Below are positions 1,020 through 11,057 of a stretch of DNA of 26,614 nucleotides, piece after piece. The notes under the pieces were generated by a model. The model saw only the letters and a list, made by a program, of their open reading frames with translations, had not been told where the DNA came from and did no database searches. This DNA is from a virus. Taxonomy: Duplodnaviria > Heunggongvirae > Uroviricota > Caudoviricetes. The translations under genes were made by a program, and so were the position numbers. Positions within the stretch are counted from its first letter, which is position 1. Each line of letters opens with the position of its first letter. The stretch covers positions 1 through 26,614 of the IMG/VR virus record IMGVR_UViG_2703719347_000005. One strand, 5' to 3'.

Positions 1020-1029
1020 GGGGGGGGGG
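1020..1029. repeat. G10 homopolymeric tract upstream of the iraM-like ORF
   Basis: Ten consecutive G, preceded by T7 and followed immediately by TAATAT (1030-1035); ~80 bp upstream of the ATG at 1107. Confidence 0.9.
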
Positions 1030-1475: not shown

Positions 1476-1527
1476 ATAAATAAAACAACGGGCGTGTTAT
1501 ACGCCCGTTTCAATATTTAACACATGG
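1476..1527 (-). terminator. Intrinsic terminator downstream of the icd 3' end (copy 2 of the repeated element)
   Basis: Perfect hairpin AACGGGCGT-gttat-ACGCCCGTT (1487-1509) followed on the minus strand by a GTTTTATTT run; lies just 3' of the icd stop codon (1533-1535). Confidence 0.6.
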
Positions 1528-1532
1528 AGAGA

Positions 1533-1692
1533 TTACATGTTTTCGATGATCGCTTCACCAAACTCTGAACATTTCAGCAGCTTAGCGCCTTCCATCAGAC
1601 GTTCGAAGTCATAAGTTACGGTCTTGGCATTGATTGCGCCTTCCATACCTTTAACAATCAGGTCAGCCGCTTCAGTCCAACCCATATGGCGC
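1533..1692 (-). pseudogene. icd: 3'-terminal fragment of the isocitrate dehydrogenase gene (icdC-like), prophage attachment-site duplication
   Basis: Minus-strand translation reads ...[53 protein letters not shown], matching the Icd C-terminus. Homology to icd stops abruptly near 1692, with an in-frame stop just upstream. Confidence 0.85.
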
Positions 1693-1995
1693 AGCAATAT
1701 CTACGCCATAAATTCTTAAGAGACTGATTTTATTATTTATTTAACCAATGCATCGAATTTTTATTGCCTTAAACTACATTGTTTAACTTGTTGATTTAGA
1801 TAATTTTAAGCTTCGTTTTGGGGAATAAATTATCGCCTTTGACCCAAAACCTATCGGCCATTACAACGTGGCGCCAGGGACTAAAGCTTTGCTCCTGAGC
1901 TAACGCGACGAGCAGTTGTACCTCGACCCGGTTCACTGGGTTACGCGCCAGGGTGGTGGGACAAACCGCCATTGATTAATGCGAAGTACTGATAA

Positions 1996-2029
1996 TATAA
2001 AAAATAAAAACCGGGATAGAGTATCCCGG
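1996..2029 (-). terminator. Rho-independent terminator of the 147-aa cargo ORF
   Basis: Hairpin CCGGGATA-gag-TATCCCGG (2011-2029), followed on the minus strand by T-tract TTTTTATTTTTT, 8 bp after the stop at 2037-2039. Confidence 0.6.
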
Positions 2030-2036
2030 CTCAAAG

Positions 2037-2480
2037 TTAGTGCACCGTAAGCTTTGATGGATTATCAGAGATGTCGAATGAAAACTCATCCCCATCTTTA
2101 TTGAAGCTGAAAGAATCAACATTATTTGTCTTAACGGACACTAAATCACCTAAAGGCCCATATACGCAAGTTGCCGTTCCACCGTTAGTAAACAACACTT
2201 CCTTGGTCACACCGGATACATTGGTAATTGTATTTACAGAAACCACGTTTGCTAAATTTTTTGGATAAGCATATTTGATTGACGAATAGTTGATGGTGAG
2301 CACGGTTCCACTATTGCTAATGGCAGCTCGATGGCCCCCATTCATCTCAGCCACCATACTCCCGTCTGGATAATAAGTCACTTTATGCCCATTTTGTTCA
2401 ATAACTTTTTTCCCGTCGGAATACTCAGTTACTGTATTAATACCCAACTGAAAAACTTTCGGTTGTTCATTATCTGCCAT
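2037..2480 (-). CDS. Hypothetical protein (147 aa), prophage cargo near the attachment site
   Basis: Uninterrupted ORF with its own terminator. No signal peptide or recognisable motif; Gly/Asn/Thr/Val-rich, beta-rich appearance. Confidence 0.5.
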   Translation of the reverse strand: MADNEQPKVFQLGINTVTEYSDGKKVIEQNGHKVTYYPDGSMVAEMNGGHRAAISNSGTVLTINYSSIKYAYPKNLANVVSVNTITNVSGVTKEVLFTNGGTATCVYGPLGDLVSVKTNNVDSFSFNKDGDEFSFDISDNPSKLTVH

Positions 2481-2666
2481 TTAATTCCCCTTTTTTTCTC
2501 CTGAAGAAACCCCATCAACCTTTACTTACTTTGTTAATATACACAAATATTTTTATAAATCCGCAGCCTAGATCAAATAAATGCTCATTGTTTTCAGCTG
2601 AGCCCTATCGAACTAATACAGAAATGAACTAAACGAATAAAATTTTTCTATTCTAGAAAATTGATA

Positions 2667-3932
2667 CTACTTAACCTGTAACAGGTCGGAGTATCTTGTA
2701 GTATAGCAAGGTGAAAGCATTTCCCGCTTCATCTGCCAGGCCGTTTGGATCCCCTGCCCTGCAAAATACAGCGTTCCCCTTCCGTCTTTCGCATTGAGAT
2801 GGTCGAGTACTTCCATCAGTTTCTCGCTATTCCGCCGTGGCACGTTATCATCAAACAAGTTTAGCTGGGCCACCCCCTGACTGTAGAAATCCCCCAGCAT
2901 CACTCCGGCTTTCTGGTAGCGATACCCGTCTCGCCAGATTGCATCGAGACATTCCGTCGCCGCTGTGATTATGTCCCGACTGTCCTGGGTCGGGGTCAAT
3001 AGTTTCACTGATGCACTATTGCCGTAGTACGGCTCATTCAGAGCAAATGGGCTGGTTTTGACGAATGCAGAGATAAAGCGGCAGTACTGATGCTCACCAC
3101 GGAGTTTCTCCGCGGCACGGGATGCGTATAAGCATATCGCCTGGCGCATCTCTTCGTAGGTGGAAATCCGCTGCCCAAAGCTGCGACTACAGACAATCTC
3201 CTGCTTTACCGGCGCGAACTCCTCAAGACCGAGACATGGCTCTCCGCGTAGCTCCCGCACGGTTCGCTCCAGTACCACATTAAAATGCTTCCGGATAAAA
3301 CGGATATCGGTATCCGCCAGTTGCAGTACAGTTTTAATCCCCATGGCCTCCAGTTTTTTACTGATGCGGCGCCCGACGCCCCAGACCTCATCCACCGGAA
3401 GCAAAGCCATCAACTTCCTCTGTCTTTCCAGGTTCGACAGATCCACCACGCCTCCGGTCTGCCGCTGCCACTGTTTCGCGGCGTGATTGGCCAGCTTCGC
3501 CAGGGTTTTAGTCTGGGCTATGCCGACGCCGACCGTTAGGTGTGTCCTGCGCAGAACCGTCTCGCGAATTTCCCTGCCAAAGTCGGTAAGGTCGCGACAA
3601 TTCCGAACTCCTGTCAGGTCGCAAAATGCCTCATCAATACTGTAAATTTCGCAGCGTGGAGAGAGTTCCTCCAGCGTTGTCATCACTCGGTTGGACATAT
3701 CGGCATAAAGCTCATAGTTGCTGCTAAACGCGATAATACCGTGCCGGCGAAACACGTCCTTTTGCTTGAAATAAGGCTCACCCATTTTGACGAAGGGCTT
3801 CGCTTCTGGCGAGCGGGCGATCACACAGCCGTCGTTGTTTGACAGAACGACCACCGGACGCCCTTTCAGGTCAGGACGAAATACGGTCTCGCACGATGCA
3901 TAAAATGAATTCACATCACAAAGCGCAAACAT
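2667..3932 (-). CDS. umuC: Translesion DNA polymerase V catalytic subunit UmuC (Y-family polymerase)
   Basis: Starts MFALCDVNSFYASCE with the SIDEAFCDLTG catalytic motif, ~421 aa. ATG is at 3930-3932, one nt after the umuD stop. The ORF-track 5' extension to 3992 is rejected. Confidence 0.9.
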   Translation of the reverse strand: MFALCDVNSFYASCETVFRPDLKGRPVVVLSNNDGCVIARSPEAKPFVKMGEPYFKQKDVFRRHGIIAFSSNYELYADMSNRVMTTLEELSPRCEIYSIDEAFCDLTGVRNCRDLTDFGREIRETVLRRTHLTVGVGIAQTKTLAKLANHAAKQWQRQTGGVVDLSNLERQRKLMALLPVDEVWGVGRRISKKLEAMGIKTVLQLADTDIRFIRKHFNVVLERTVRELRGEPCLGLEEFAPVKQEIVCSRSFGQRISTYEEMRQAICLYASRAAEKLRGEHQYCRFISAFVKTSPFALNEPYYGNSASVKLLTPTQDSRDIITAATECLDAIWRDGYRYQKAGVMLGDFYSQGVAQLNLFDDNVPRRNSEKLMEVLDHLNAKDGRGTLYFAGQGIQTAWQMKREMLSPCYTTRYSDLLQVK

Positions 3933-3933
3933 C

Positions 3934-4353
3934 TTAGCCAGCTGATTTAATGATGTACGTAACCACCCCGAACACGTCGAGAGTGTCCTCACTACCGACG
4001 ACTATTGGCGAATATGCAGGGTTCATTGGGTTAAGCTGAACCCGCGGATGCAGTTGCAGCTTCTTAACGGTGAATTCCCCATCCACAGCAGCAATAACGA
4101 TATCGCCATGAACTGCTGTTCTTGAGCTATCCACGACCAGAAGATCACCTTCCCCTATGCCTGCGTCTTTCATGCTGTCGCCGGCGGCTTTGACAAAATA
4201 CGTCGCACTTGGGTGGTTAACGAGCAACTCGTTCAGATCAATACGTTGCTCAACATAATCCTGCGCTGGACTAGGAAAGCCGCACTGCACAAGGTCACTG
4301 TACAACGGGAGCAGCATGATCTGGCGTAACTCAACGGGCGTGTAGAACTGCAT
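3934..4353 (-). CDS. umuD: UmuD, LexA-like self-cleaving accessory subunit of polymerase V
   Basis: 139 aa from ATG 4351-4353 ([13 protein letters not shown]...). Conserved Cys-Gly cleavage site (LVQCGFPSP), Ser (GDSMKD) and Lys (TVKKLQL) present. Confidence 0.9.
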
Positions 4354-4372
4354 AATAAACTCGCTCACAAAA

Positions 4373-4392
4373 TACTGTTTTTATATACAGTA
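4373..4392. promoter_or_regulatory. LexA (SOS) box upstream of umuD
   Basis: TACTGTTTTTATATACAGTA: canonical CTGT-N8-ACAG palindrome, 20 bp upstream of the umuD start codon. Confidence 0.8.
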
Positions 4393-4567
4393 GTTTTATT
4401 CGCTAATCTAATCAATAGAGGTTTTAACTATCAATCAGGAACACAGAGGGGGGGGAAACCAGTCACCTTTGAGCCCCTGATATTGGTTTCACTTAGTGAT
4501 TATGTTGTCTATATGCCAGCTTTGAACTATCTTTTCTCAAAACCTGCTACTGCAAAATGGATATAAG

Positions 4568-4693
4568 ATGTCACAGACGGACTTGCTGATTGTTGTTTTT
4601 ACGCTGGGCATTTTAGCCTTTGGCTATTCCATATGGTTCATTTCGAACAGAATACTCTGCTCAATATTTCATAGACTTACAAAGAATATATGA
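4568..4693 (+). CDS. Small hydrophobic ORF (41 aa; MSQTDLLIVVFTLGILAFGYSIWFISNRILCSIFHRLTKNI), putative small membrane protein
   Basis: ATG-initiated ORF below the ORF-track cutoff with one predicted transmembrane helix. Divergent from umuD and on the same strand as the terminator at 4900-4934. Weak RBS. Confidence 0.25.
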   Translation: MSQTDLLIVVFTLGILAFGYSIWFISNRILCSIFHRLTKNI

Positions 4694-4816
4694 ATTGGGA
4701 TGGTATAGACCAAAATTCATGGTCCTTGCTCCTCGACGTCGGAAGGTACTTACAGATCATCTTCGCTCTTAACCTATCACATCGGCACCTACTCCATGAT
4801 GTAACAGCTCAGACCA

Positions 4817-4934
4817 GAAATATCTGGAAGCTTTAGGCATCTTCTTGGAAGATAGACGAGCGCAAAGACGCACACAGCAATGATGTTATGTAGTATTTTC
4901 CCCTTGAGTGTGCCTGCTCAAGGGGATTTTTTAT
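4817..4934 (+). repeat. Direct repeat copy 1 (~118 bp), homologous to 7965-8079, ending in an intrinsic terminator
   Basis: Shared GAAATATCTGGAA, a 22-bp identical core GCGCAAAGACGCACACAGCAAT (4860-4881 and 8008-8029), and a terminator hairpin with conserved loop. Confidence 0.6.
4900..4934 (+). terminator. Rho-independent terminator (plus strand) overlapping the 3' end of the invertase gene
   Basis: CCCCTTGAG-tgtgcctg-CTCAAGGGG followed by ATTTTTTAT. The minus-strand version has no U-tract, so it is not the invertase terminator. Confidence 0.6.
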
Positions 4935-5487
4935 CGCCGCATTGTACCGGCAAATTTTTGTAAATAGTCTTCACATCTACGCCTATCACATCTGCGATCT
5001 GTTGCCGAGTAGCGCCGTTCTCCAGCATTCTGCGGCACCGCTCCACCACTTCTTCAGTCATTACCCGGCGGCGGCCGCCGACTCTCCCCTGCTCCCTCGC
5101 TGCGGCTAACCCGGCTCGGGTACGCTCCACTATCAGCTCGCGCTCCATTTCTGCCAGGGCGCTCATGACGTGGAAGAAGAATCGCCCTGCTGGCGTCGAA
5201 GTGTCGATCGAGTCGGTAAGGCTGCGGAAATTCACCCCACGCGCCTGCAACTCTGACACGAGCGTAATCAGATCGCGCACGCTGCGGCCCAGCCGATCCA
5301 GTTTCCAGACCACCAGCACATCACCCGGGCGGAGCCGTCGCAGCGCTCGCTTCAAACCTGGCCGCCGGGCATTCTTCCCGCTGGCCATATCCTCGAAAAC
5401 CAGCTCACATTCTGCGCGGATCAGCGCGTTTTTCTGTAAATCGAGGTTTTGATCCCCGGTTGATACCCTCGCATAGCCAATCAGCAC
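4918..5487 (-). CDS. Serine DNA invertase, Gin/Hin/Pin/Cin family
   Basis: MLIGYARVSTGDQNLDLQ...VVWKLDRLGRS...FRSLTDSIDTSTPAGRFFFHVMSALAEMERELIVERT closely matches Gin/Pin over the catalytic domain. GTG start at 5485-5487 with SD AAGGAG 7 nt upstream. C-terminal ~45 aa diverge from what I recall of Gin/Pin. Confidence 0.9.
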   Translation of the reverse strand: MLIGYARVSTGDQNLDLQKNALIRAECELVFEDMASGKNARRPGLKRALRRLRPGDVLVVWKLDRLGRSVRDLITLVSELQARGVNFRSLTDSIDTSTPAGRFFFHVMSALAEMERELIVERTRAGLAAAREQGRVGGRRRVMTEEVVERCRRMLENGATRQQIADVIGVDVKTIYKNLPVQCGDKKSP

Positions 5488-5510
5488 GATCTAACTCCTT
5501 GAAATAGCTG

Positions 5511-5539
5511 ATTGTAAAAAGCCGCGGCCATTCGCTCAA
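5511..5539 (-). promoter_or_regulatory. Putative sigma70 promoter of the invertase gene, -35 overlapping crossover site L
   Basis: On the minus strand: -35 TTGAGC (5539-5534), 17-bp spacer, -10 TACAAT (5516-5511). The -35 hexamer lies inside the left half of the 26-bp site. Confidence 0.3.
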
Positions 5540-5556
5540 ACCCTCGTTTGGGCGAA
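5531..5556. other. gix/hix-like 26-bp recombination site L
   Basis: TTCGCTCAAACC-CT-CGTTTGGGCGAA: two 12-bp half-sites (TTC....AAACC) around a 2-bp core, as in gix/hix/cix. Exact reverse complement occurs at 11080-11105. Confidence 0.65.
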
Positions 5557-5923
5557 GCCTCTTTTTGGAGCAAAAAACATGGCCGAACTTAACCCGCCAC
5601 TGGGCACGACGACGCCGGAAATATTCATGGACAACGTTAAGCGCGCTGACGAGCTGGTTAACGGTCCGGCCGGAACGGTTGACGACCGCGGCGGTGAACC
5701 ACTCGATACCTGGCGCCAGATGATGGCGAAAAACGATGAGGTCAGGCAGAACCTGATCCCGCTCAGTAAGCAATACCAGACGCTGGCAGCGGCGCAGGCG
5801 GATATCGCGAATATTCCGGTGGGGTCGACCACGTATTACCGTAGCCCGGATGACAACGCGTTAGCTGTAGAAGTGATCAATAACGCCGGTACGCTGCAGC
5901 CTACCGGGCGGAAAATGCCATCT
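5531..5923. repeat. Left arm of ~390-bp inverted repeat (site + RBS + first ~115 codons of fibre A)
   Basis: First 48 bp are 100% identical to revcomp of 11058-11105; the next ~345 nt are roughly 85-90% identical by eye to the fibre B 5' end. Confidence 0.85.
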
Positions 5924-7918
5924 TATTCTTCGCTACGCGGGGCGAACATTCTGTTTGATGCTCTGAATGAATATTCAGCAAATGATCCTAAATTCGGTGC
6001 GTGGGACTGGTATCGCGGAGCAGTGATCACCTTCAGCACTACTGATGCCAATATTTCGTTACCGACTCCAGTGGCACAGTATTCCGGCGTATGGTCTGCA
6101 GATAAATATTATGACCTTGCCCGCCTGCCTGTAAGGGTTGGTGATAAGTTAACCTTTTCCGTGCTGGCGTGGTTCCAGGATGCCGGTGCTATGTTCCATA
6201 TTTTCTGGATGTCCACCGCTGGCGCTGTTATTTCGTCTAAATCACAGCTTGCTCTGGCCGCAGGTATAAATACGCCGGTTATCACAGATGTCATTCCATC
6301 CGGCGCATCCTACGTCAGGATCCGGGTTGAAAATACTACGGCAGGGATATTTAAGGTCGGTGCTTATGCTGCTGCGTTGGGGGCTATTCAGCCTGATTTT
6401 GTTCGCGCCACGCCGGATAAAACTTATCTGTCAGCCGTCATATCATCCGGTATTTCGGGGTTAACATCACGCGTCGATGCGCTCCAGGGAGCTATCTCTG
6501 TTGGTTATGCTTATGCAGCTGCCTGGCAAGTCGGGAAATTTATCAACCCAACTACAGGGGCCATCACTGATAACTCTGCGCTGAACTGCGCAATCATTCC
6601 GCATTCCGACGGGGATGGCTGGCTGGTGACAGCCCTTGTGACAGGATCGGCGACTGCTCTGGCCGTGTACATGAACAGCGCCGGGATGGTATTGGGTGTT
6701 GAAGGGCGGGGAACGGCAACCCCGCAGCAGTATACTAATTATCGTCTTAACGTTCCTGCCGGGACAACACAGATCGGTATAACGGGTCGTAATTCTGCGG
6801 AAATTGCTGTTAAAAAACTTGCTGTCGTTGAGACGGCCAAAGTACTGGCATCGATCGATTCTCTGGATGTCAGGGTACAAACAATAGAGGACTCTCTTGT
6901 TTATGATTTTATTAAACACGACGTCACGATTACCTCAGGAGCATATATAAACCGTGCTGATGGCAGTGTGGTGGCAAATGCTGCATTTGACTGTGCAATT
7001 TTTAATTACACAGCAGGAGACCGCTGGAAAGTCACAGCGAGGGTTAACGGCAGTGGAGTTTCGCTCGCGGTGTATATGAACAGTGCCGGGACGGTTATCG
7101 GCACCGAAGGGAACGGTACTACAGAATCGGTGGACTACACCGATTACGAGCTAACACCTCCTTCCGGCACCGCCAAAATCGGGATCACCACCCGTATAGC
7201 CGTCCCCATTATTGCCAAAAAATATGTAGTCGTTCCCGGTGGTAGCACGGTCAGTCCGTGGTCTGGAAAAGTCATCGATGTGATGGGTGACAGCAACGTT
7301 GCTTATAACAAATGGCAACCTCTTGTCGCGGCAGAACTGGGCTGCACTTTTCTGAATCACGGGGTCGGTGGTTCGAAAATAGCCAAACCGGATAGCTCCT
7401 CAACGCAAATCAGCATGTGCGACGATGTGCGAATCAATGCTCTGGATACATCGGCGGCGGCGTGGATTTGCGGTCCGTGGGCAACAAACGACTGGGCGCA
7501 AAATATTCCGATTGGAAGTATCACCGACTCAGTGAATACAACCGTTTACGGCGCGCTGAACATCATCGCTCAGAAACTGCGGGCGCGGGCCCCAACAAAA
7601 CCTATCCTGTGGGCCACGCCGTTCAATGGGGACTATGATTCTCCACGTTCAGCGGCATGGGTTGACGGTGAAACAAATGGCTATGGGCGGGTTTCTGACT
7701 ATGCAGCGGCCATACGCGCCGTGGCGTTGCGATATGGATTCCCCCTAATAGACCTTAACGCTGACTGTGGCTGGACAAAATTCAATAGCACTAGTTTTTT
7801 ATTAACCGAGGGGGATACAAATCCGTCCCGCATCCACCTCAATGCGGACGCGGGGCCTGTGCGTATTTCCTCACTGATAACCGATCGGCTTACTGCCCTA
7901 CAGAAACTGGTGGGCTAG
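5579..7918 (+). CDS. Alternative tail fibre A (779 aa): shared N-terminal anchor, three repeated ~100-aa modules, C-terminal GDSL/SGNH-like esterase domain
   Basis: N-terminus MAELNPPLGTTTPEIF... shared with fibre B for ~115 aa. C-terminal region carries MGDSNVA, HGVGGSK, WATNDW and a late His (SRIH), reading like SGNH hydrolase blocks. Currently antiparallel to the tail operon. Confidence 0.7.
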   Translation: MAELNPPLGTTTPEIFMDNVKRADELVNGPAGTVDDRGGEPLDTWRQMMAKNDEVRQNLIPLSKQYQTLAAAQADIANIPVGSTTYYRSPDDNALAVEVINNAGTLQPTGRKMPSYSSLRGANILFDALNEYSANDPKFGAWDWYRGAVITFSTTDANISLPTPVAQYSGVWSADKYYDLARLPVRVGDKLTFSVLAWFQDAGAMFHIFWMSTAGAVISSKSQLALAAGINTPVITDVIPSGASYVRIRVENTTAGIFKVGAYAAALGAIQPDFVRATPDKTYLSAVISSGISGLTSRVDALQGAISVGYAYAAAWQVGKFINPTTGAITDNSALNCAIIPHSDGDGWLVTALVTGSATALAVYMNSAGMVLGVEGRGTATPQQYTNYRLNVPAGTTQIGITGRNSAEIAVKKLAVVETAKVLASIDSLDVRVQTIEDSLVYDFIKHDVTITSGAYINRADGSVVANAAFDCAIFNYTAGDRWKVTARVNGSGVSLAVYMNSAGTVIGTEGNGTTESVDYTDYELTPPSGTAKIGITTRIAVPIIAKKYVVVPGGSTVSPWSGKVIDVMGDSNVAYNKWQPLVAAELGCTFLNHGVGGSKIAKPDSSSTQISMCDDVRINALDTSAAAWICGPWATNDWAQNIPIGSITDSVNTTVYGALNIIAQKLRARAPTKPILWATPFNGDYDSPRSAAWVDGETNGYGRVSDYAAAIRAVALRYGFPLIDLNADCGWTKFNSTSFLLTEGDTNPSRIHLNADAGPVRISSLITDRLTALQKLVG

Positions 7919-7964
7919 TTAACAGTGCTTATCGCGTAGTAGTGTTTCTAAAATGCTGTAATAA

Positions 7965-8079
7965 GAAATATCTGGAAATGTTTTGAATTATCCAGGAGTA
8001 TATCAACGCGCAAAGACGCACACAGCAATAATGTCATTCATCGCTTTTCCCCCGGCGTGCCTCCGGGGGGATTTTTTAG
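7965..8079 (+). repeat. Direct repeat copy 2 (homolog of 4817-4934) downstream of fibre A
   Basis: See copy 1. Stem sequence differs from copy 1 with compensatory changes (CCCCTTGAG/CTCAAGGGG versus CCCCCGG/CCGGGGG) while the loop (GTGCCT) is conserved. Confidence 0.6.
8049..8079 (+). terminator. Rho-independent terminator downstream of fibre A
   Basis: CCCCCGG-cgtgcct-CCGGGGGG followed by ATTTTTTAG on the plus strand. Confidence 0.6.
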
Positions 8080-8173
8080 TCCTTTATGACGTCGTCTTGT
8101 CCCGTCCTCAGGGAAGCTATAGTGGTCTTATTTCACGTGGTAACTGAAACTGAATACAGTACGAGTCAGCTTA

Positions 8174-8890
8174 TTACGCGATTGATAAAATCCCTTCATA
8201 GCTCTGAGTGACGAGGTCAACCATATCCATTTTTTCAGCCTGAGAGAGTATTCCGCCCGCCCACACCCCTGTCATTGCAATATCCACAGCGCCTAAAAAA
8301 TCTGACGTGATATAGGAGTAGCCAGCATAAATCGACTTATTCGGAACAGGGATTGCGCGGGCGGTAACAGCGACCTGTTCAGTCGATAACAGCTCACTGT
8401 TCGTCATTTTATGAAGCTGAACCATAGAGTTATTCACATCGAGGAAAACCAGATGGAATTTACTGGTGTCCAGTGGAGTCGCGAGGGTGGCGGTTGCTGT
8501 CCCGCTTGACCGCCCCACAATCCCCCTGATTTGAGGAATGGCCGGTTCAAAAACAAACGTATCCCCCTGCGGTTGTACAGCAGAGCCGAGATAGTTACCC
8601 ATGCCCAGCGCTCTGGTAGTGCTTTTAGGCCGGAGTAACACCATCATGGTTTTAACCGGGTTATCCGTGACTTTCAGATCATAACCCCCCGCACCAACAC
8701 CACCCGTAAACCAGTACGTGTTGATGACAGGTGCCCCCACTATGGTTGGCTCTTCCCCAAAAATAGCCCCAAAGTTCTGGCTGCCAAATGTGGCAATGCT
8801 CGCGATAGACGGCTGCGGATAACTCGAACCAATAATACAGTCATCATCCCAGACGGCATCAACATTAATAGATAATCCCTGATTAGACAT
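8174..8890 (-). CDS. Hypothetical protein (238 aa) co-transcribed downstream of fibre B; possible fibre accessory or assembly protein
   Basis: Start ATG 8888-8890 (MSNQGLSINVD...), 7 nt after the fibre B stop, with GAGG SD overlapping that stop. The ORF-track 5' extension to 8989 overlaps fibre B and is rejected. No family recognised. Confidence 0.5.
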   Translation of the reverse strand: MSNQGLSINVDAVWDDDCIIGSSYPQPSIASIATFGSQNFGAIFGEEPTIVGAPVINTYWFTGGVGAGGYDLKVTDNPVKTMMVLLRPKSTTRALGMGNYLGSAVQPQGDTFVFEPAIPQIRGIVGRSSGTATATLATPLDTSKFHLVFLDVNNSMVQLHKMTNSELLSTEQVAVTARAIPVPNKSIYAGYSYITSDFLGAVDIAMTGVWAGGILSQAEKMDMVDLVTQSYEGILSIA

Positions 8891-8897
8891 AAGTACC

Positions 8898-11057
8898 TCA
8901 CAACGTGATTTCAAACATGACGCAATAGTTATCCATACGGATAACCTCGCTATTAAGGGTAAAACTGATAATGTCGCCCTGGCTGTCACGCAGACAACCG
9001 CGCGGCCCGGTCAGGCGACCCGGTGACTGGCCGGTGGTGCCGCCGTGAAAGGCATACTGAAGAATGGCCCCGGCAGGGATATCCGCTGCCGTTGAGACAG
9101 TCACCGCGTCATAACGGATATTGAGGCTGGTCAGCGGGATAATCGCACGTGTGTCAGGGTGCAGTAGCCGGAAACCATAATTACCCGGATCAGAAACAAT
9201 GCTGGTATCAAAGCTCAGCCGACCCACCGGATTCAGCCACACCGTAGCGGCGCGGCCCTGGCGTTGATGACTAACTGGCATCAGTGGTTTTGCCGCTTTG
9301 CCGTCAACCAGCGCCCGCTTTTCCATCACGGAAATATAAAGCCCCTGAATATAGGAACTTCTGGCGGTGAGGTGTGCGCCATCCGTGTAATCGTGAATGT
9401 ACATCGGGTTCGTGAGATAGACATTTTCGCGTGTCTGCGCCAGCTCCAGCAGCGCCATCGGAATGGTGGGATAGGCTGTGTTCGGCGTCCGGTTTATCCA
9501 GCTGCTGAACTGATAAACAAAAATCGGCACATGGACTTCTTCGCCGCACACAGCTGAGGCGTGGGCATCGATCCGCTGTTGCATGGTGTCGAAAATAGCC
9601 TGATAGTCTGCTTTGGTGGTGCCTTTCGTCTGGTCTGCTTCGCCCTGCATCCAGTACATCGCCACAGGCCGGTAGGTTTTCCCGAGCTCCTGAGCGCGGG
9701 CGTAACCATAACTGATATCATCGAAAACTCGCTGAATGTACTTTCCGGGATACGCCGCCAGCACATCAATGGGTTGACCGCCCTCCGCCGGAACAGAACC
9801 CAGAATGATCAGATCATCCGGGTTAAAGCCATAGTTCTCGGCAATCATCAGTTCGTACCAGCCGCGAATGCTGGCCCCCATTGGGGTTTCCCATGCCTGG
9901 CCGTTATCGGTGTTTTTATACGTCTCGACGTAGGGAACCAGCTGAGCATGGTTTTCTGCCGAAGTGCCGGAGCCATCCTGCGCCCGTGCCCCACCGATAA
10001 AACGCAATGCGGTATACAGCGCGGCTATCGTAATCAGGGCCTGAGTATTCACGCCAGCGGCAAGCGATTGTCCGTAACCGATTTTATGGGCAATATCCGG
10101 CAGGCGTGAGTAAATGGACTGATTAAAATAGCGCAGAAATTCAGGGGAAATAATCGCTTTAACTTCCAGAGTTTCGGCTTTCAGCGATTTTACCTCTCCA
10201 TGATTCGCTTCAATTTTCCCCGCAGCAAATGCCCCGTTTTTTTTGATACCCACAGCCGGACGATTTAACGTATCACGCCACGCCATAACGAAATCGCGGA
10301 ATGTCGCAGTAGAAATGCTGGCGTTGGCTGGTAACCCTAAGATACTGGCAATCGTAAGATTGTTGATCTCAGCCTTCCCTGATTTCAGTACCCCTTTTTT
10401 ATTAATGGCAAAACAAAGCCGTTTAAGGGTGTCATAAACTGAAACAGCGTTACCGTCAGCCACTAATGATAAAGCAGAATTCCCGATATTCAGACGTGAT
10501 GACGAGATGATCGACGAAATAAATTCATCCGCTGAGAGCTTTTTTAATTCTGCTTTATTCGCCTTAATCCACCCGGCAAGCAACCGGCCCGCCTCATCCA
10601 GCCCTACCGAATAATTTTTTCGTTCATCCATAAAGGCAAGAGACATACCCGCTGGCGCATTCTGGCTGAACGTTGCTCTGATCAAATCAGTCATGATATT
10701 GACCAGCTCCTGAGATGGCATTTTCCGCCCGGTAGGTTGCAGCGTCCCGCCGTTATTCATGTACTCGTCCGCCAGCGCCCAGACGTCCTGGCTGCGAACA
10801 TAGGTCGTGGAGCCAACGGGGATATTCGCGATATCTGCCTGCGCTGCCGCCTCATTCATATACTGCTTGCTGAGTGGGATCAGGTTCTGCCTGACCTCAT
10901 CGTTTTTCGCCATCATCTGGCGCCAGGTATCGAGCGGTTCACCTGCGCGGTCGTTAATCGTTCCGGCCGGACCGTTCACCAGTTCGTCAGCGCGCTTGAC
11001 GTTATCCAGGAATATTTCAGGCGTCGTCGTTCCCAAAGGCGGGTTAAGTTCGGCCAT
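8898..11057 (-). CDS. Alternative tail fibre B (719 aa): shared N-terminal anchor, SASA-like acetylesterase domain, extra C-terminal domain
   Basis: N-terminal ~115 aa shared with fibre A. Residues ~325-585 carry YGQSLAAG, WMQGEAD and DGAHL, consistent with SASA/DUF303-type SGNH esterases. Colinear with the tail operon, so this is the presumably expressed fibre. Confidence 0.7.
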   Translation of the reverse strand: MAELNPPLGTTTPEIFLDNVKRADELVNGPAGTINDRAGEPLDTWRQMMAKNDEVRQNLIPLSKQYMNEAAAQADIANIPVGSTTYVRSQDVWALADEYMNNGGTLQPTGRKMPSQELVNIMTDLIRATFSQNAPAGMSLAFMDERKNYSVGLDEAGRLLAGWIKANKAELKKLSADEFISSIISSSRLNIGNSALSLVADGNAVSVYDTLKRLCFAINKKGVLKSGKAEINNLTIASILGLPANASISTATFRDFVMAWRDTLNRPAVGIKKNGAFAAGKIEANHGEVKSLKAETLEVKAIISPEFLRYFNQSIYSRLPDIAHKIGYGQSLAAGVNTQALITIAALYTALRFIGGARAQDGSGTSAENHAQLVPYVETYKNTDNGQAWETPMGASIRGWYELMIAENYGFNPDDLIILGSVPAEGGQPIDVLAAYPGKYIQRVFDDISYGYARAQELGKTYRPVAMYWMQGEADQTKGTTKADYQAIFDTMQQRIDAHASAVCGEEVHVPIFVYQFSSWINRTPNTAYPTIPMALLELAQTRENVYLTNPMYIHDYTDGAHLTARSSYIQGLYISVMEKRALVDGKAAKPLMPVSHQRQGRAATVWLNPVGRLSFDTSIVSDPGNYGFRLLHPDTRAIIPLTSLNIRYDAVTVSTAADIPAGAILQYAFHGGTTGQSPGRLTGPRGCLRDSQGDIISFTLNSEVIRMDNYCVMFEITL

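Follow-up and report, generated by a model that had tools for sequence, protein, structure and literature searches.

The 26,614-nucleotide stretch of caudoviral DNA analysed here (IMG/VR record IMGVR_UViG_2703719347_000005, positions 1 to 26,614; the window, hereafter, is this whole stretch) carries the Escherichia coli gene iraM, which encodes an RpoS-stabilising anti-adapter protein, preceded by an uninterrupted run of ten G residues (G10). On balance, we favour the view that this G10 represents one of several lengths taken by a slippage-prone poly-G tract situated in the transcribed leader of iraM, outside the promoter spacer. The elements on which the argument turns are as follows.

Positions 1011 to 1017, + strand: run of seven T residues (T7), followed by GA at 1018–1019.
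Positions 1020 to 1029, + strand: poly-G tract, G10, between the GA at 1018–1019 and the TAATAT at 1030–1035.
Positions 1030 to 1035, + strand: TAATAT, a hexamer resembling a −10 element, kept in 8 of 9 alleles (TAATGT in ET220), at about +13 to +18 of the mapped 5′ end.
Positions 1011 to 1018, + strand: zone containing the published ycgW/iraM 5′ end, that is, T7 plus the G of GA (position −87 is the G at 1018).
Positions 1107 to 1430, + strand: iraM, an open reading frame (ORF) of 107 amino acids whose product is identical to the K-12 anti-adapter protein IraM (WP_001295666.1).

In the window sequence, the local order is TTAATTAATTTA-TTTTTTT-GA-GGGGGGGGGG-TAATAT-ACTCATATG, and the iraM ATG lies 77 nucleotides (nt) past the end of the tract and 71 nt past the end of TAATAT, bearing out the initial annotation, which had placed T7-GA-G10-TAATAT about 70 base pairs (bp) before an iraM-like ATG. 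The tract's counterpart in K-12 MG1655 is a G8 at 1,212,081–1,212,088, read as a C-run on the reference strand. Because dinucleotide-preserving shuffles predict 0.05 occurrences of G10 in the window (only 4 of 100 contained one), where one is observed, and because the intergenic region around it is 28% G+C, the tract is not a chance feature.

To place this length among those of the species, we counted tract lengths in 5,426 complete E. coli genomes, 3,918 of which contain the iraM upstream region, as exact matches to Gn together with 30 nt on its left and 55 nt on its right; these queries are shorter than 100 nt, so any single difference falls below the 99% identity band. At least 1,311 of the 5,426 genomes carry an uninterrupted tract of G6 to G16 between identical flanks, distributed as follows.

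G6: 20 genomes.
G7: 156 genomes.
G8 (the K-12 length): 617 genomes, the mode.
G9: 285 genomes.
G10: 146 genomes, including that of enterotoxigenic E. coli (ETEC) H10407.
G11: 78 genomes.
G12: about 25 genomes (from record lengths).
G13: 2 genomes.
G14: 1 genome.
G16: 1 genome.

Lengths of G12 and above were taken from record lengths, since identity bands mislead when the query far exceeds the subject tract in length (a G14 query, for example, returned 237 matches at ≥99%, from trimmed alignments). A 231-nt search found 1,105 records at ≥99%, in line with the counts for G7 to G11 and with the 1,151 genomes summed over G8 to G12, and the distribution in this census is broad and unimodal. Metagenome contigs (49, mostly Illumina/SPAdes) rank tract lengths in the same order as the complete genomes, the K-12-like allele appearing as G7 twice, G8 ten times, G9 seven times and G10 once. 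Aligned representatives with otherwise identical flanks are G10 (the window), G9, G8 (MG1655) and G7, and other allele classes have short interrupted blocks (T6-GAAGGGG, T7-GAGGGGG and T7-GGGAG). The initial annotation had left open whether the tract exists in reference strains and had proposed comparing its length across E. coli genomes: it is present, as G8 in K-12 MG1655, G11 in HS and G10 in H10407, and its length, ranging from G6 to G16, is hence not invariant.

The same comparisons bear on the rate at which the tract changes. One identical 1,000-bp left flank accompanies G8, G9 and G10, and strains whose matches to the first 4.4 kb of the element inserted in icd score equally have G9 (5CRE51), G10 (98227), G11 (MRSN) and G12 (Ec42). 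In SAM7, an MG1655 population adapted to silver, breseq called one fixed change from Illumina reads (frequency 1.0), '+C at 1,212,080, intergenic (-77/+623) iraM/ycgX' (PMC11510482), which on the iraM strand is a change from G8 to G9. Slipped-strand instability is thus supported by polymorphism among strains, by the lengths in Illumina metagenomes and by the +1 G fixed in an MG1655 population; judging from these sequences, the tract appears to mutate faster than its surroundings, and it is the most mutable site of the iraM locus. Clonal or serial sets show one length each (G11 in Ec-050 T0, T5 and T20 and in a further Ec-050 record; G11 in four MRSN isolates; G12 in ESY001-003), K-12 laboratory derivatives more than one (G7, G8 and G9).

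That miscalled homopolymers in long-read assemblies, and not biology, account for the differing lengths we regard as highly improbable, even though K-12 laboratory derivatives have been read as G7, G8 or G9 and off-by-one calls are possible. Lengths of G7 are recorded for DH5alpha, NEB 5-alpha, HST04, DHB4, C3026, ER1709 and one 'MG1655', some of them possibly homopolymer errors; G8 for MG1655, BW25113, DH1 and C600; and G9 for MC4100_0.1s and the O16:H48 mouse-gut isolate PG20180172, where long-read homopolymer error is possible. Sequencing error of this kind fits poorly with an observed range of 6–16, which goes beyond plus or minus 1, with the differences among MG1655, H10407 and HS (the last G11 in two independent assemblies), with the internal consistency of the clonal sets, with G7 in all three separate DH5alpha-type assemblies, with G7 to G10 in Illumina metagenome assemblies and with an Illumina/breseq +1 call at frequency 1.0.

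Whether a mutable tract could act as a switch depends on where transcription begins, and one 5′-end determination was retrieved for iraM. Table S1 of Mendoza-Vargas 2009 lists 'ycgW, -87, DMTSS 5' RACE' with the sequence 'Tttttttgaggggggggtaat' for MG1655 (PMC2760140), and a −10 was predicted for ycgW in 'ttaaTTTATTTTtttg' (PMC2760140). Numbered as in K-12, the G of 'GA' stands at −87 and T7 at −88 to −94; this coordinate mapping was cross-checked against ymgK (1,212,260–1,212,304) and against the −77 annotation of the +C mutation. Because the method, 5′RACE (rapid amplification of the 5′ ends of cDNA), tails the cDNA with poly-A, the exact position of an end at the T-run is ambiguous, and the same tailing ambiguity is seen in Table 1C for aspS ('ttttttc') and menA ('ttttc') (PMC2760140). 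A 5′ end upstream of the G run implies that the tract would be transcribed, at about +3 to +12 in the window, and this position inside the transcript makes an on/off switch unlikely.

The initial annotation had instead taken TAATAT for the −10 element of iraM, with the tract in the spacer, such that slippage would alter the −35/−10 spacing and switch iraM on and off. We find this very doubtful. Its attractions are that TAATAT is conserved as listed above, that the tract is mutable and that the weight-matrix score of a promoter using TAATAT rises and falls with tract length n (highest for n = 6 and 10, lowest for n = 8 and 12). Set against these, the mapped 5′ end lies upstream of the tract; the −35 partner of TAATAT has at best 3 of 6 matches at any tract length, and in the commonest (W-like) allele only 1–2 of 6 by hand count from the alignment; the modal G8, the length of K-12, in which PhoP-dependent induction of iraM has been reported, gives the worst spacing (19 bp); and an overlapping TATACT evens out the effect of n. 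Moreover, the AT block and TAATAT are anywhere from 12 to 25 nt apart among natural alleles, all with an intact annotated iraM, a range that a promoter spacer would not tolerate and that therefore argues against a spacer role, and the lengths form one broad peak with no ON and OFF classes. The TAA of TAATAT is also the in-frame stop that bounds an upstream ORF described below.

Promoter candidates lie further upstream, and were compared across nine iraM-upstream alleles (86–100% identity).

Positions 955 to 983, + strand: TTGAGA-17-TATTTT, the best sigma-70-like promoter candidate between 900 and 1150 by consensus scan and crude weight matrix (TTGAGA at 955–960; TATTTT at 978–983, TGTTTT in non-K-12 alleles).
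Positions 1004 to 1009, + strand: TAATTT, a candidate weak −10 (TTTATA at 981–986, 17-bp spacer, weight-matrix score 6.8).
Positions 942 to 958, + strand: candidate PhoP box TGTTTA-acatc-CATTGA (TGTTTAacatcCATTGA), with 3 mismatches to TGTTTAN5TGTTTA.

From the promoter model at 955–983, we infer a start at about 984–990, which would put the tract at about +30 to +46; TAAATT (971–976), an alternative −10, is invariant in all nine alleles, and TAATTT at 1004–1009 would fit a start at 1016–1018. The sequence at 942–958 may be the PhoP site of iraM. Its half-sites are conserved, its 5-nt spacer varies across the nine alleles (ACATC, ATATC and ATCTC), and its proximal half-site overlaps the −35 TTGAGA of the best promoter match; PhoP-box-like matches with 3 mismatches are nonetheless common in the window (33 observed versus 19 expected), so that the match alone is not above chance. 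Two other PhoP-like sites were set aside: 889–905 (− strand), which is invariant and so uninformative, and 1047–1063 (− strand), which is unlikely, a good half-site being lost in several alleles (TGTTTA to TGTTCA). All indels among the nine alleles (a 7-bp insertion, a 2-bp deletion, T5 to T7 and the G block) fall in 989–1029, with substitutions only, and no indel, in 900–988 and 1030–1112. In the Shimada 2014 data from systematic evolution of ligands by exponential enrichment (SELEX), RNA polymerase and H-NS bind somewhere in the ycgX-iraM spacer; the iraM promoter predicted there, 'TTCATA-17-CATAAT', was not located by eye in the sequence.

Two parts of the initial proposal therefore fared differently. 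A slippage-prone tract stands, given lengths of G6 to G16 between identical flanks and a +1 change in MG1655. Switching through the promoter spacer is not supported: the one, non-inducing 5′RACE datum puts the 5′ end upstream, the PhoP-like site and best promoter match lie at 942–983, and TAATAT lacks a −35 better than 3 of 6. Phase-variable expression of iraM likewise finds no counterpart in unimodal lengths and in serial isolates that keep one length. As far as published data go, transcription starts elsewhere and the tract lies outside the promoter; because the repeat is mutable but, on present data, does not occupy the position required, we do not count the tract among phase-variable promoters.

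A separate question is why all alleles retain G residues at this place. A G-rich block precedes TAATAT in every allele (GAAGGGG, GAAGGG, GAGGGGG, AGGGGA, GGGGAG or GGGAG) in surroundings of about 72% A+T, which argues that the core has a function separate from its expansion in the K-12-like allele. Downstream of it is an unannotated ORF.

Positions 1042 to 1110, + strand: upstream ORF of 22 codons, whose TGA stop (1108–1110) overlaps the iraM ATG (1107–1109) as ATGA.

Its AUG, at 1042, lies 12 nt past the G-rich block, and the frame is open, at the same length, in 62 of 62 sequences (15 haplotypes). Predicted pairing of the block with the anti-Shine-Dalgarno sequence is −8 to −12 kcal/mol for most alleles (range −4.6 to −12.6), compared with −4.0 for the ribosome-binding site (RBS) of iraM. 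As read from the sequence, the geometry of a leader ORF is present (Shine-Dalgarno-like block, stop/start overlap, conserved open frame), and it is tempting to speculate that the G-rich core may act as the Shine-Dalgarno sequence of a 22-codon ORF coupled to iraM. With its 3′ end fixed, the run lengthens in the direction opposite to the AUG, which would explain why length is free to drift, and anti-Shine-Dalgarno pairing at usable spacing is predicted to be unaffected by length for n ≥ 6. Predicted accessibility of the iraM RBS is flat for n = 5–16. Because the 3′ end of the run is fixed and both predicted pairing and RBS accessibility are constant for n ≥ 6, we expect from this modelling that length variation would be nearly neutral, or a modest quantitative modifier of IraM, with no ON/OFF switch. 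Two further roles for the tract were considered and rejected. An RNA-structure role finds no support: sequences folded singly pair the G run with a U/C-rich coding stretch, a pairing that is not borne out by a consensus fold of six alleles; no meaningful Rfam match was found in 400–1800. No intrinsic terminator for ymgK/ymgL transcripts was found at the tract in a scan of 700–1600, where the T-run precedes the G-rich block.

Several observations weigh against a transcribed, non-switching leader tract. 5′RACE does not tell primary from processed ends, an oligo-dT-type anchor could in principle prime wrongly within a longer cDNA, at its internal A7, and the cells used came from LB or M9 cultures at 30 °C, conditions that are non-inducing for iraM. 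PhoP control of iraM, with a PhoP-dependent start site, was reportedly described by Bougdour et al. in 2008. No iraM start site was obtained from the genome-wide resources for transcription start sites of Conway 2014, Kim 2012, Cho 2014 and Ettwiller 2016; the reviews consulted, in which PhoP activation of iraM is stated, and related papers likewise gave none. At exactly G10, a weak but recognisable TTTATT-17-TAATAT is formed, some length calls from long-read assemblies may be off by one, and the expectation of near-neutrality draws on the length distribution and modelling only. For the upstream ORF, the idea derives from geometry only, the 12-nt spacing between Shine-Dalgarno sequence and AUG is long, and the peptide is unconserved (7 nonsynonymous versus 1 synonymous change), with no purifying selection; an open frame of 22 codons has, by our estimate, a chance expectation of about 15% in this composition, and the ORF is found neither in RefSeq annotation nor in a collection of 15 billion proteins.

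A transcribed tract could also do more than drift. It might act as a quantitative tuner, or rheostat, of IraM, with lineages differing heritably in RpoS stabilisation, a possibility that we hold tentatively and on the unlikely side. The routes could be promoter escape, slippage in the initial transcript at a G-rich start, the distance from start to TAATAT (a sigma-70 proximal pause at +13 to +18) or ribosome loading on the upstream ORF. Such tuning would suit a tract that starts at about +3 of the mapped 5′ end with a −10-like hexamer directly 3′ of it, and a G block that is a strong predicted anti-Shine-Dalgarno partner before an ORF overlapping iraM; the +1 change fixed in one evolved population would suit it too, hitch-hiking being equally possible. 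It is countered by modelling, which predicts Shine-Dalgarno pairing and RBS accessibility constant with n, by the lack of conserved RNA structure involving the tract and by broad, unimodal lengths that fit drift, and promoter escape, reiterative transcription and sigma-dependent pausing are proposed by analogy with other promoters. Bolder still, and to our minds distinctly unlikely, is a contingency locus in which length would heritably set how strongly PhoPQ signals stabilise RpoS, via the 5′ end of the leader and/or the leader ORF.

As for the origin of a leader tract of variable length, an ancestral short G-rich block may have become an uninterrupted G run in the K-12-like allele, and replication slippage may then have spread that run over G6 to G16. 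An interrupted form, T7-GAGGAGGGGG, occurs in two metagenome contigs; it has the length of GA+G8 and is one A/G change apart from it. A single substitution could thus turn an interrupted, stable block into a slippery G8, or the reverse. At the equivalent of 1018–1029, metagenome loci L017, L043 and L012 have interrupted GAGGAGGGGG and GAA+G7 forms.

Known systems offer partial parallels. Promoter-spacer homopolymers cause phase variation at Neisseria meningitidis porA (poly-G) and opc (poly-C) and Bordetella pertussis fim (fim3, poly-C). The iraM tract resembles these in being a G/C homopolymer of about 8–12 nt, directly 5′ of a −10-like hexamer, that varies among strains by slipped-strand mispairing. 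In porA, opc and fim, mapped −35 and −10 elements enclose the tract and its length sets the expression class, whereas at iraM the 5′ end is upstream, there is no credible −35 and lengths form one broad peak; in addition, E. coli is mismatch-repair proficient and clonal isolates hold one length. PhoP-activated promoters (of the mgtA, mgrB and phoPQ type) have a (T/G)GTTTA-N5-(T/G)GTTTA box overlapping the −35 region. Like them, iraM is reported to be PhoP-activated and has a box-like site overlapping the −35 of its best promoter match (942–983); unlike theirs, this candidate box is 3 mismatches off the idealised repeat and statistically undistinctive alone. Leader-ORF control and translational coupling are known from the mgtL-mgtA leader ORFs of the PhoP regulon and from ATGA-type coupling in operons. 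As in mgtL-mgtA, a short ORF lies in the leader of a gene induced by Mg2+ starvation, in the iraM case with a stronger predicted Shine-Dalgarno sequence than the main gene and an ATGA overlap; unlike in mgtL-mgtA, the iraM ORF is known from sequence alone, with a long 12-nt spacing and no conserved peptide or attenuator structure. Reiterative transcription at initial homopolymers occurs at pyrBI, codBA and upp (E. coli) and at pyrG (Bacillus subtilis, with extra 5′ G's). The A-T7-G arrangement of iraM, with T7 and G8–10 runs at or next to the mapped 5′ end, may be likened to the start regions of codBA and upp, whereas iraM, unlike pyrBI, codBA, upp and pyrG, has no known link to nucleotide pools. 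Finally, homopolymeric tracts have been surveyed in B. pertussis (PMC1891110), Mycobacterium tuberculosis (PMC10334774) and Escherichia (PMC8928963), and the iraM tract would fit the looser class of such loci: intergenic, near a regulatory gene, polymorphic, changing in evolving populations and with no proven switch. It is not named in part 1 of 3 of the Escherichia survey (PMC8928963), and in the literature searched, it is undescribed beyond one line of a mutation table (PMC11510482).

The genes around iraM in the window are as follows.

Positions 1 to 405: ycgX, the first gene of the locus, with ymgL next.
Positions 804 to 848, + strand: ymgK, a small-protein gene upstream of iraM.
Positions 1533 to 1697, − strand: duplicate of the 3′ end of icd, beyond iraM, with the element inserted in icd beyond it.

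That element, which includes 2667–4368 (− strand), carries a recombinase and umuDC-like (Y-family polymerase) genes and replaces e14/mcrA of K-12. None of the complete E. coli genomes compared covers ≥80% of window positions 1500–9500, and the best matches extend over no more than the first 4.4 kb. Another long G run, G8 at 4448–4455, is intergenic and upstream of the umuD-like gene (3934–4368, − strand). Two copies, or one place counted twice, account for loci L056 and L057 of Shigella flexneri SFBU0723 (CP182557.1), both W-type with T6-GAAGGGG. In strains whose icd is free of such an element, as in E. coli 51008369SK1 (locus L059, 20208–28691), only about 6 kb separate iraM from phoPQ, which is reported to activate it, in the order iraM-icd-rluE-nudJ-mnmA-hflD-purB-phoP-phoQ.

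Heritable variation driven by repeats is regarded as rare in E. coli, and the level of RpoS is among its most frequently tuned traits. For those who resequence this species, the site calls for caution: it varies among K-12 stocks and clinical lineages and will recur as a resequencing 'mutation' that is not necessarily adaptive. The upstream ORF, together with the conserved G block, is perhaps the more testable lead on iraM expression, the RBS of iraM being weak. If the tract were indeed a contingency locus, K-12-like lineages would gain a fast, reversible shift between stress protection and growth without mutating rpoS, and, more generally, a mutable tract beside an RpoS-stabilising anti-adaptor could bear on strain differences in stress resistance.

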